DNA of 22,773 bases, from UHGV virus genome UHGV-0256221; one strand, written 5' to 3'. Below, piece by piece: positions 18,416 through 21,567 of this stretch (position 1 is its first letter; every line of letters starts with the position of its first letter). Source of the stretch: a virus. A model generated the notes under the pieces. It ran no database searches. It was not told where the DNA came from and worked only from the letters and a program-made list of their open reading frames with translations. A program made the position numbers and the translations under genes.

Positions 18416-19015
18416 ATGGCGCACGAACTACAACTCATTAAGCAATCATCAGGAATCCTGATCCCCGCTACGCCGGAGACCAGCGATATTCTGCAATCAA
18501 AAATCAAACTCGGCGCCGTGCTGGTAGCCGAATTTCGTCAGGTGAGGAATCCCGCATTCCATCGCCGTTTTTTTGCGCTCCTGAATCTCGGGTTTGAATA
18601 CTGGGAACCTACTGGAGGGGCGATCTCCTCCAACGAGCGCAAACTGGTAACCGGCTACGCCAAATTCCTTGCCTCATTCGCGGGAAGTGAAGCTGCACTC
18701 CTGGATGCAGCTGAGCAATATCTGGAGCGTATCGCTGATAAGCGAGCCGGTAGCATTAGCATCTGCAAATCCTATGATGCTTATCGTGCATGGGTGATCA
18801 TCGAGTCTGGTCACTACGACGCCATTCAGCTTCCCGACGGCACCCTTCGCAAACACCCCCGCAGCATTGCCTTCGCCAACATGGACGAAACCGAGTTCCA
18901 GCAGCTGTACAAAGCCGCGCTTGATGTCCTCTGGCGCTGGATATTGTCAAAAGCGTTCACGGACCAGCGCGAGGCGGAGAACGCCGCTGCGCAGCTCATG
19001 AGCTTCGCGGGGTGA
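18416..19015 (+). CDS. nin-region protein (DUF1367-like, from memory)
   Basis: 199-aa ORF; stop overlaps next start. Confidence 0.45.
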   Translation: MAHELQLIKQSSGILIPATPETSDILQSKIKLGAVLVAEFRQVRNPAFHRRFFALLNLGFEYWEPTGGAISSNERKLVTGYAKFLASFAGSEAALLDAAEQYLERIADKRAGSISICKSYDAYRAWVIIESGHYDAIQLPDGTLRKHPRSIAFANMDETEFQQLYKAALDVLWRWILSKAFTDQREAENAAAQLMSFAG

Positions 19016-19221
19016 TGGGGATGAAGCATACCTGGTTCCATCATACCGATTGCACAACCCAGCAGGCCGAAGAGCTCATGGAGGAATACCAGCGCCGCGG
19101 CGTAATGGTAGAGCGCAGCCTGAACTCCGATTATCTCACCTGGACCGTCAGCGCCCGGCTTCCTGAAGGCAATAAACCACCGCGTATAAATCGCCAGTGG
19201 CAAAACCGGATATGGGGGTGA
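19012..19221 (+). CDS. Hypothetical small protein
   Basis: 69-aa ORF coupled to neighbours. Confidence 0.4.
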   Translation: MMGMKHTWFHHTDCTTQQAEELMEEYQRRGVMVERSLNSDYLTWTVSARLPEGNKPPRINRQWQNRIWG

Positions 19222-19505
19222 GCGTGGCTATTTATCGCAGCAAGAAATGGCTCGCCGCCGTCGGGCAGATCGAACGTTGTGTTCTTTGTGGCGCATGGGG
19301 AACGCAGGTGGCACACCGGAACGAAGGGAAAGGCATGGGATTAAAAACTGATGACTGTGCGACAGCTGCGCTCTGCGTTTGCTGTCATGACAGCATTGAT
19401 AACGGGAATAAGCTGAACAGGGAAGAGCGCCGGCAGCTTATGGATCGCGCGATTGTTCTGACAGTGATTGAAGTTGCCCGCCGCGGGCTGGTGGTGCCCG
19501 CATGA
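19197..19505 (+). CDS. Cys/His-rich nin-region protein (possible zinc-binding)
   Basis: ORF has GTG start; alternative ATG at 19212 (MGVSVAIYRS); CVLCG ... CVCCHD; stop overlaps the rusA start. Confidence 0.45.
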   Translation: MAKPDMGVSVAIYRSKKWLAAVGQIERCVLCGAWGTQVAHRNEGKGMGLKTDDCATAALCVCCHDSIDNGNKLNREERRQLMDRAIVLTVIEVARRGLVVPA

Positions 19506-19858
19506 AAATTTACGAAATTACGCCGATTGGCAAGCCCAGGATGACTCAGCGTGACCGATGGCATAAACGGCCAGCAACGGCAGCGTACTGGGCTTACAAA
19601 GAACAGGTCAGGTTGCTCGGCATCCGTCTGCCTGAGTCCGGATATCACGTCACGTTCGTTATCCCCATGCCAAAGAGCTGGAGTAAGGCAAAGCGGGCGC
19701 AATATGTCGGCAAGCCACATCGACAAAAGCCGGACAAAGACAACCTGGAAAAAGCTTTGCTGGATGCAGTGTTTGACGAGGATAGCCATGTCTGGGACGG
19801 ACGGGTTACCAAAATCTGGGGAGAAACCGGGCAAATCATTATTGAGGAGGCCAAATGA
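19502..19858 (+). CDS. rusA: RusA-family Holliday junction resolvase
   Basis: 118 aa; RusA-like acidic motif (KPDKDNLEKALLDAVFDEDSHVWD); located just before Q. Confidence 0.8.
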   Translation: MKIYEITPIGKPRMTQRDRWHKRPATAAYWAYKEQVRLLGIRLPESGYHVTFVIPMPKSWSKAKRAQYVGKPHRQKPDKDNLEKALLDAVFDEDSHVWDGRVTKIWGETGQIIIEEAK

Positions 19859-19992
19859 AGCCAGAAACGCTTGAGATACTCCGCGCGCGCTGGCAGCGCC
19901 TTCGCATTTATCGCTACCGGGGATCGGTGCTGGTGGATTATCGCATTCTTCGTAATTTTGTTCGTATCTATCATTCAGCAGGAGCAGCCTAA
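19855..19992 (+). CDS. Possible 45-aa Arg-rich protein between rusA and Q
   Basis: Hand translation MKPETLEILRARWQRLRIYRYRGSVLVDYRILRNFVRIYHSAGAA; GAGGAGG RBS 4 nt upstream; start overlaps rusA stop, stop overlaps Q start. Confidence 0.3.
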   Translation: MKPETLEILRARWQRLRIYRYRGSVLVDYRILRNFVRIYHSAGAA

Positions 19993-20774
19993 TGAACCTC
20001 GAAAACACCGTGAAATATCACTTCGCCAAGTCGACGCTTATTAGCGACTCTCCGCGCGCCACTGGTTCAGATTCGCTGACCGGGACGGATGTCATGGCGG
20101 CCATGGGCATGACCCAGGAACGTGCCGCCATGGGATACAGTGCCTTCCTCGGCAAGATGGGCATAAGCAATAACGACCGGGATCGGGCGATCGGTCTGCT
20201 GGCTGAGTACGCGATGACAAAATGCGATAAAGTAGCCGCGCTGCGCAAGCTCGCCGACGGGGTTAGGCCGTTGGTTATACATCAGCTTGCTACCTTCGCT
20301 TTTGAGGACTATTCCCGCAGTGCCGCCAGCGTGAAGCAGTGCGATTGCTGCTCTGGCGTTGGATTCATTCAGGCTGATGTATTCACCAATAAATTCCGCA
20401 AGCCAGAAGGCAAAATGACAGTGTCCGGAATGGTGAAGGTCAAAGAGTCTGTGAAGGTGCTCTGCAAAAAGTGCAATGGTGCCGGAACCGTTAGCGCGGC
20501 ATGCAGTGATTGCCACGGGCGAGGAAAGGCAGTAAACCAAGACCTGACGGAAAAGCAGGGTATTCCTGTCCTGGCGGATTGTAAGCGCTGCGGCGGTCGC
20601 GGATATGAACGTATCCCATCAACTGAGGCCCACGCAGCTGTTTGCCAAATTACGGATGCTATCAGCCTGGATACGTGGAAGAAGTCTGTTAAACCGTTCT
20701 ATGATCAGCTGATTACGAAATTCGATATTGAAGAGGCATGGGCCGAAACACAGCTTAAGCAAATAACACGATAG
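19992..20774 (+). CDS. Putative late antiterminator Q (Cys-rich, four CxxCxGxG motifs)
   Basis: 260 aa between rusA and the late promoter/lysis module; CDCCSGVG, CKKCNGAG, CSDCHGRG, CKRCGGRG; call rests on position plus zinc motifs. Confidence 0.55.
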   Translation: MNLENTVKYHFAKSTLISDSPRATGSDSLTGTDVMAAMGMTQERAAMGYSAFLGKMGISNNDRDRAIGLLAEYAMTKCDKVAALRKLADGVRPLVIHQLATFAFEDYSRSAASVKQCDCCSGVGFIQADVFTNKFRKPEGKMTVSGMVKVKESVKVLCKKCNGAGTVSAACSDCHGRGKAVNQDLTEKQGIPVLADCKRCGGRGYERIPSTEAHAAVCQITDAISLDTWKKSVKPFYDQLITKFDIEEAWAETQLKQITR

Positions 20775-20810
20775 CGATTACGAAAATAGTCTGCGCTTTG
20801 ATTGCGGCTA

Positions 20811-20838
20811 TTTACTTTTCCCGAATCTGTGTTAATTT
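20811..20838 (+). promoter_or_regulatory. Candidate late promoter PR'
   Basis: TTTACT, 16 bp, TAATTT about 40 bp after the Q stop; weak match. Confidence 0.25.
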
Positions 20839-20869
20839 TATCCCAACGATGGGTTAATGCCTTCGTTTC

Positions 20870-20906
20870 AAGCCCTGCGGTTAACACCGTGGGGCTTTTG
20901 CGTTTC
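20870..20906 (+). terminator. Intrinsic terminator after the late promoter (tR'-like)
   Basis: AAGCCCTGCGG-TTAACA-CCGTGGGGCTT hairpin (two G-U pairs) followed by TTGCGTTTC. Confidence 0.5.
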
Positions 20907-21150
20907 TGGAGGGTAAGAAAATGCACCAGTAAACGGATAGACCGCAGCCGAAAGGCAAAGCAGCAGTCATGATGCTGCCCTGAGTCGCCATTGAGCGAGC
21001 CTGTGTAGCGATGGGTTAAGGTTCATGTATTAAAAATAGCTCCGGTAGAGCAGCGCGAACGCCAGACGCGCACCGGTTATAAGCGGCGATAGAGCGACAG
21101 CACCTCAAGGGCATGAGCGTGGCCACTCCGGGTAGTGGCAAAGAATTTAT

Positions 21151-21180
21151 AGCCTCGCTTATGCGGGGCTTTTCTATTTC
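21151..21180 (+). terminator. Second intrinsic terminator before the lysis genes
   Basis: AGCCTCGC-TTAT-GCGGGGCT hairpin followed by TTTTCTATTTC. Confidence 0.5.
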
Positions 21181-21288
21181 AGGCCTCACGGGAATCATCC
21201 GCTACGTGCTTTGTTGATAAATCCAGCCCGTGAAGCCTGACCCTTTTCAAACACACACAGCGCCATCCGAAAAATCGGAGGTGAGGCT

Positions 21289-21567
21289 ATGACCAGAATG
21301 AGCACCATTTACAGCAGACTTTCATATGGAACAGGCACCACGCTGACCGGCTGCGGTGTATCAGCGAAGGCATATGCCGAAACAGCTAAAACAGCAAAAG
21401 AGGTGTCCTGGATGTTGGCCGACAGAATTGCAGGGTTAAGCCTGAGCGACTGGGCAATTATTGTCGGTATCTCATGCACTGTTATCACCTGTGCAGTGAA
21501 CTGGTACTACAGGAAAAAGGAAAGGGAGGACCGGCTTAATGGCAATGTCACCAAAGCTGAAGAATAG
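21289..21567 (+). CDS. Pinholin (phage-21 S21-like)
   Basis: 92 aa; [32 protein letters not shown] resembles S21 (SPSQWAAIGVLGS...YFKIREDRR, from memory); GGAGGTGAG RBS; followed by a SAR endolysin. Confidence 0.6.

Follow-up and report, generated by a model that had tools for sequence, protein, structure and literature searches.

The gene order at the late end of the nin region in virus genome UHGV-0256221, a stretch of 22,773 nucleotides (nt) analysed at full length and called here the window, raises a simple question. Between the genes rusA and Q lies an open reading frame (ORF) of 45 codons plus stop (19855..19992, + strand), and both of its ends run into the neighbouring genes. Does it encode a real small protein, or is it a segment whose only use is to couple translation of Q to that of the genes before it? 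An earlier note, made from the sequence alone, had allowed for both answers. We are highly confident that the ORF truly encodes a protein and that it belongs to the YlcG family, forming the final small gene of the delayed-early nin operon, situated directly before Q; family models and conservation across loci point this way. The gene is already catalogued, as ylcG or, in phage 82, as orf45: it is real but ordinary, and its name was not recognised in the earlier note.

Features of the sequence taken by themselves stay within chance level. A frame of 45 codons remains open by chance with a probability of (61/64)^45, or ~0.12; several overlapping ORFs are equally long or longer; and the heptamer GAGGAGG, which precedes the start codon, is present in the window as a single copy, with 1.8 copies expected from shuffles. 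The case for a real ORF rests, therefore, on conservation.

We gathered 41 loci from the window, 34 of 35 genome contigs, four phage records and E. coli K-12; one genome contig (L007) was left out because it breaks off at the 5′-end of the ORF. The ORF is intact in all 41 loci, encodes 43-47 residues and has its start codon at the aligned position (ATG in 29 loci, GTG in 9 and TTG in 3). The check proposed in the earlier note, conservation of the frame across homologous rusA-Q junctions, gave in this way a frame that is open everywhere. Substitution tests were made with the 39 distinct nucleotide sequences. Mean column entropy at the first, second and third codon positions was 0.75, 0.65 and 1.35 bits, respectively; the third positions vary most, at about twice the entropy of the other two. 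The ratio of nonsynonymous to synonymous substitution rates (dN/dS, computed by the method of Nei and Gojobori) had a median of 0.23 in the ylcG frame, with a pooled ratio of the corresponding proportions (pN/pS) of 0.42. The two other sense frames, and likewise two antisense frames, gave dN/dS of 1.4-1.5 and were rich in stop codons. In the remaining antisense frame, whose wobble position coincides with that of ylcG, the value was lower, 0.37, yet stops occur there in 39 of the 39 sequences. The balance of synonymous and nonsynonymous change was the place where, according to the earlier note, a coding reading could fail; the balance found favours coding. Because the frame is intact, the third positions are variable and the in-frame dN/dS is 0.23, we conclude from the aligned sequences that the YlcG peptide itself is under purifying selection.

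Other frames over the same segment were considered and rejected as genes: 19871-20044 on the + strand, and 19645-19974 (109 residues) and 19385-20008 (207 residues) on the − strand. Homologs carry stops in all of them. The two antisense ORFs, which extend across rusA and ylcG, are not conserved, and over the ylcG part homologs show stops in all three antisense frames.

The identity of the protein is given by curated models. The 45-residue translation, MKPETLEILRARWQRLRIYRYRGSVLVDYRILRNFVRIYHSAGAA, matches NCBIfam NF033498 (YlcG_phage_expr) with 90.9 bits (E 2.9e-26; residues 1-40 on model positions 1-40 of 41), the curated cut-off of this model being 30 bits. It also matches PHROG 2705, a family with function unassigned, at E 6e-28 (positions 1-44 of 46). 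A Pfam-A scan of the 45-residue protein returned no match, the library copy probably being one without PF26818; the homologs all carry precomputed PF26818 (Phage_YlcG). Together with the 41 intact frames and the dN/dS value, the NF033498 score supports the first option of the earlier note, a real small basic protein. The product is indeed as basic and Arg-rich as had been described: there are 9 Arg, 1 Lys, 4 Tyr and 3 acidic residues, with a net charge of +7 and an isoelectric point (pI) of 11.2.

All core residues of the YlcG consensus are found in the window protein. The core occupies residues 10-34 and reads R.RW..LR.YR..G[ST]VLVDYRIL.N, with a broader form that allows [YF] and [VT]. Among 57 diverse members conservation is complete or reaches at least 90% at W13, L16, R17, G23, D28, Y29, R30, I31 and N34; with R10 and R20 added, the set is conserved at 88% or more. 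The variable parts are the ends, namely the first 9 and the last 8 residues. In length the window ORF falls in the YlcG class (about 40-50 residues), and its placement, after the last nin gene and before Q, is that of the family.

Searches in larger collections gave the same picture. Megablast against complete E. coli genomes found the same rusA-ylcG-Q segment, labelled by the Prokaryotic Genome Annotation Pipeline (PGAP), in this order, as RusA family, ‘YlcG family protein’ and antitermination protein. With tblastn of phage records, a homolog was found in 75 phages (of Escherichia, Klebsiella, Salmonella and Enterobacter). A profile search of a collection of 5.8 billion proteins yielded 1006 clusters at 90% identity, among which every named one was a YlcG family protein of Enterobacterales prophages; an exhaustive HMMER search of 1.84 billion representatives yielded 85 clusters at 50% identity, nearly all with proteins of 40-50 residues. 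Longer proteins that contain YlcG were considered as domain fusions and rejected: they result from read-through, from frameshift fusion or from mis-starts further upstream. The slot before Q is also occupied by ylcG in phage 82, DLP12, Gifsy-1, Klebsiella phages and 35 genome loci.

At the nucleotide level, direct reading confirmed the junctions that the earlier note had described, and the flanking genes proved to be those it had named. The upstream gene, rusA (19502..19858, + strand), encodes a Holliday-junction resolvase (PF05866, E 5e-14; PHROG 140, E 2e-28). Its final codons, GAG GAG GCC AAA TGA, contain the Shine-Dalgarno sequence of ylcG, GAGGAGG (19844..19850, + strand), which is separated by the 4-nt spacer CCAA (19851-19854) from the ylcG ATG (19855-19857). 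The rusA stop TGA occupies 19856-19858, and the tetranucleotide ATGA (19855..19858, + strand) is common to both genes, the geometry of termination-reinitiation. At the other end, the ylcG stop TAA (19990-19992) has as its last A the first base of the Q ATG (19992-19994), so that the two codons form TAATG (19990..19994, + strand). The Shine-Dalgarno sequence of Q, AGGAG (19980..19984, + strand; −6.6 kcal/mol), is located 7 nt before the Q ATG, inside ylcG codons 42-44 (A-G-A). The Q gene (19992..20774, + strand) encodes a late-gene antiterminator of the PF03589 type (PF03589, E 2e-45; PHROG 127, E 2e-103) with DnaJ-like CxxCxGxG zinc-finger motifs.

Considering the neighbourhood in the 41 loci, we saw that the genes on either side of ylcG come from several families. 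The upstream gene is RusA in 15 loci, NinG in 18 and another gene in the remaining 8 (Dam methylase, YbcO-like nuclease, Ref-like nuclease and three unknowns). The gene directly downstream, in what we call the Q slot, is of the PF03589 type, as in the window, in 16 loci, of the PF06323 type (Q82, Gifsy-1) in 16, of the PF06530 type (QuuD) in 6 and DUF1133-like in 3; for most loci these labels are best BLAST matches to Pfam-classified references and not per-locus Pfam assignments, which is to be counted against what we build on them. The Q-slot genes make up four mutually dissimilar families, and the window Q has no detectable similarity to Q82 or to QuuD. In 41 of 41 loci, and in two more distant ones (L042 and L043), ylcG stands directly before the late-regulator gene. 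A divergent member of the family (P0232, 42 residues) keeps the order NinG-YlcG-Q. YlcG proteins that are 91-98% identical adjoin different Q families and either RusA or NinG, and pairs as close as 96-98% are found after RusA or after NinG. Since near-identical YlcGs have different Q families and different resolvases, YlcG does not co-vary with its neighbours.

The overlaps, too, recur. In 37 of the 41 loci the ylcG start and the stop of the preceding gene share an NTGA, whatever that gene may be, and the ylcG stop overlaps the start of the Q-slot gene (as ATGA, TAATG or TAGTG) in 36; Shine-Dalgarno-like sites are present ahead of both starts. The duplex of the window ylcG Shine-Dalgarno with the 3′-end of 16S RNA has −12.0 kcal/mol (mean of the 41 loci, −8.2), the joint strongest value, tied only with the identical junction of phage HK225. 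The element GCAGGAGC, seen at the Shine-Dalgarno of the window Q, recurs in most loci with an overlapping Q. Gly43 of YlcG is nearly invariant, probably because the Q Shine-Dalgarno lies in codons 42-44. Twelve ylcG genes have GTG or TTG starts (L005, L012, L013, L015-L017, L019, L025, L030 and L032-L034). Eight of these share a GTGA or TTGA with the end of the preceding gene; in the other four (L030, L032-L034) NinG ends 85-88 nt upstream. The GTGA and TTGA starts are consistent with reinitiation rather than with free initiation.

From this geometry one could propose that ribosomes ending rusA would reinitiate at ATGA, aided by the strong Shine-Dalgarno, and that ribosomes ending ylcG would then be handed over at TAATG to the start of Q, a start served in addition by an AGGAG of its own in the ylcG tail; translation of ylcG would thereby contribute in cis to the output of Q. 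We regard this account of reinitiation and delivery as probable. Several points weigh against giving it a special meaning. Overlaps of 4 nt are standard along the nin operon (19012/19015 and 19502/19505 in the window; also in phage 82) and, being common to the whole operon, say nothing specific on ylcG and Q. Q has its own Shine-Dalgarno and could initiate independently, and it is from the geometry of the junctions that the ylcG-Q coupling is read. A structured RNA element at the junctions was considered and dropped: the predicted fold of 19830-20030 is no more stable than those of shuffled sequences (z = +0.39). A promoter scan of 19000-21400 found no sigma-70-like site and hence gave no hint that ylcG or Q is transcribed from an internal promoter. 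In five QuuD-type loci Q begins 70-85 nt downstream, with its own ribosome-binding site, and YlcG is retained; ylcG is therefore not merely a coupling device. Coupling is the ordinary style of the whole nin region, not a special device; between ylcG and Q it is likely, but it is not what the ORF exists for.

At the QuuD-type loci a trace of a former arrangement may be seen just 3′ of ylcG. In L038 (3368-3457), L031 (2638-2714) and L010 (2638-2700) the ylcG stop is still part of an ATGA, which opens a short ORF before the ribosome-binding site of quuD; in L027 (2632-2713), also of the QuuD type, an ATG is found a few bases past the TAA stop. The short ORF after ylcG in K-12 reads MKSEITIN and ends there. 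Those in L027 and L031 begin MKLE[AS]SLKHFS.QG..., resembling the N-terminus of the window-type Q, MNLENTVKYHF. The short ORF has the look of a remnant, left by an earlier Q start that overlapped ylcG, and would mark a mosaic joint just 3′ of ylcG.

Comparison with described phages places the window gene among close counterparts. In phage 82 (X92588), orf45 is annotated between rus and Q and overlaps each of them by 4 nt; in the E. coli K-12 prophage DLP12, ylcG (b4509) is situated between rusA and quuD. All three genes stand after rusA and before a Q gene, with an ATGA overlap with the rusA stop. The window protein is 55% identical to those of K-12 and phage 82 (45 versus 46 residues) and has the same core, whereas its first 8 residues and its C-terminal tail are different. 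Differences are also seen in the Q family (PF03589 in the window, PF06323 in phage 82, PF06530 in DLP12) and at the 3′ junction (TAATG, ATGA and an 85-nt gap, respectively). The window as a whole is a mosaic lambdoid phage or prophage whose nearest relatives are HK225 and mEp237. HK225 (JQ086371) has a 100% identical YlcG protein, the junctions and RusA being identical as well, whereas its Q is only 79% identical to that of the window. Its ylcG, at 41894-42031 (L001 2501-2638), is unannotated in GenBank: the next gene listed there after that of RusA is Q.

As a discovery the gene carries little weight: the family has been named since 1996 (orf45 of phage 82), it has curated models and PGAP annotates it routinely. 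Some deposited phage records omit ylcG nevertheless, the identical copy in HK225 among them. YlcG is one of the most widespread lambdoid microproteins without assigned function, and the present survey narrows the hypotheses by three results: the constant slot before Q, the lack of co-variation with Q or resolvase, and a confidently predicted basic hairpin.

This hairpin was predicted by AlphaFold2. With the diverse alignment of 57 sequences the model had a predicted local distance difference test score (pLDDT) of 89.2 and a predicted template modelling score (pTM) of 0.61; a shallow alignment gave pLDDT 73 and the same topology. The predicted fold consists of a helix at residues 3-18, a loop at 19-24 around the invariant Gly23 and a second helix at 25-41. 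The proteins of all 41 loci are strongly basic: their pI ranges from 10.4 to 12.0 and their net charge from +5 to +9. Helix 2 is hydrophobic on more than one face (V25, L26, Y29, I31, L32, F35, V36, I38, Y39), which in the model is probably too much for a lone hairpin and would point to self-association or to a partner. Searches for relatives returned little. Foldseek against PDB gave 0 matches; the BFVD structure search returned solely a YlcG from an Erwinia phage; in the PDB sequence profile search nothing was significant, the top match being eL15 (E = 0.27). No structural or sequence relationship to a known nucleic-acid binder was thus found in PDB, BFVD or profile searches.

What would such a protein do? 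One could suggest, tentatively and on the strength of the model, that YlcG is a basic two-helix hairpin which pairs with itself or with a partner and binds nucleic acid or an acidic host surface. Its target would most likely be one common to all these lambdoid phages, and neither Q nor the resolvase specifically, because YlcGs of 91-98% identity adjoin dissimilar Qs as well as RusA or NinG.

Among more specific roles, the one that survives best, and which we still consider unlikely, is that of a trans-acting accessory of late-gene expression: the basic hairpin would act on the nascent late RNA, on RNA polymerase or on an elongation factor and tune Q-dependent antitermination or the timing of lysis, whatever the Q family. 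The constant position immediately upstream of the Q slot, across four dissimilar regulator families, and the Arg-rich, very basic nature of the protein speak for such a role. So does Gifsy-1, where the ‘antQ operon’ consists of four genes, the last one being the Q-like antQ (PMC4825925); we infer from position that the third is the YlcG homolog STM2618, and the gene in the ylcG position appears in this way to be part of that operon. The order of nin genes is, however, conserved anyway, which makes adjacency weak evidence, and YlcG has no similarity to a known RNA- or polymerase-binding protein. In its general form, with a probably dimeric basic hairpin as a generic cofactor of the lytic switch that binds the late leader RNA, RNA polymerase or an elongation factor, the suggestion seems to us doubtful; if it were true, antitermination or lysis timing would be tuned regardless of Q family, and the constant slot before Q would be explained.

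A role on the other side of the gene is quite unlikely as well. YlcG could bind DNA as an accessory factor in the module for recombination and junction resolution, taking the slot that NinH has after NinG in lambda. In 33 of the 41 loci ylcG follows the gene of a junction resolvase, RusA or NinG, and lambda ninH resembles ylcG in being a small gene that overlaps the stop of the junction-endonuclease gene ninG by 4 nt, in the same operon and shortly before Q. A tblastn search with NinH gave no match at any of the YlcG loci examined, and this absence fits a single slot with alternative occupants. NinH differs, however, in length (68 versus 45 residues), ninI lies between ninH and Q in lambda, and the two proteins have no sequence similarity, BLASTP giving no alignment even at E = 100. 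In addition, the upstream gene is of another kind in 8 loci, and YlcGs of 96-98% identity follow RusA or NinG alike.

A small host-directed inhibitor or toxin-like peptide, of the kind known from other phage peptides of <60 residues that block host proteins, is a still less convincing identity for YlcG, and we hold it to be very unlikely. Over-expression of K-12 ylcG from the ASKA collection gave a glycogen-deficient phenotype, listed beside hokA and yoeB (PMC2853380), and the exposed hydrophobic face in the predicted structure suggests binding of a partner. Yet the phenotype is one entry of a screen and non-specific, cryptic prophages such as DLP12 keep the gene intact with no evident harm, and the PADLOC defence models gave no match.

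We give hardly any credence to the weakest alternative, the second option of the earlier note, in which the ORF is a mere cis-acting coupling or leader frame, traversed to reach the Q start, with an irrelevant peptide sequence: the overlaps at both ends (conserved in most loci), the Q Shine-Dalgarno inside the ORF and the Gifsy-1 precedent isrK-orf45-anrP, with its demonstrated AUGA coupling and conservation of nucleotides instead of amino acids (PMC4825925), would favour it, but it is largely refuted by the substitution pattern (dN/dS and third-position entropy), and the nearly invariant 25-residue core, the retention of the protein where Q is 70-85 nt away and the lack of a stable RNA structure for translation to open stand against it as well. 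The ‘orf45’ of this precedent was considered as a counterpart of YlcG and rejected as a different ORF. It is alike in that it is part of a lambdoid prophage, has 45 codons and shares an AUGA between its stop and the next start, with coupling shown experimentally; unlike ylcG, it is non-homologous, belongs to a separate locus downstream of Q and is a pure coupler, conserved in its nucleotides but not in its peptide (PMC4825925).

For the YlcG-family gene itself, literature on the K-12 member offers some data on expression. The pair rusA-ylcG has been treated as an operon activated by HusR in stationary phase (PMC12844172), and a passage of the same source, citing Hemm et al. 2008, describes ylcG of K-12 as induced in stationary phase.

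Some of the loci showed features worth recording in their own right. An enterobacterial-type ylcG is present in a 667-nt contig labelled Actinomadura rugatobispora (L007; 98% identity to the window over 40 residues), and another in a protein (P0173) labelled Bacillus amyloliquefaciens; in both of these assemblies, which are of unrelated Gram-positive organisms, ylcG is probably contamination. In a decayed prophage an intact ylcG is located ahead of a split DUF1133-like gene. The Q-slot gene is in two pieces at L017 (2638-3328) and at L043 (3126-3727), and ylcG is intact there. A DUF1133-like protein of ~200 residues, with a gene overlapping the ylcG stop, occupies the Q slot in L029 (2638-3279), L035 (2638-3237), L037 (2611-3219) and L043 (3126-3727). 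Beyond the DUF1133-like gene, L029 and L035 have a long stretch of non-coding DNA (~700 nt), and in L029 a recognisable holin-lysozyme lysis cassette comes next. The DUF1133-like protein may be a further late-regulator family.

Downstream of Q in the window, a sequence scan found a strong terminator-like hairpin at 20870-20897, 96 nt past the Q stop, with a 12-bp stem and then a run of T. Rfam and transfer RNA scans of the entire window returned no match, nor did Rfam for this hairpin. The hairpin is probably the promoter-proximal late terminator that is overridden by Q; the HK225 record annotates a rho-independent terminator at the matching position.

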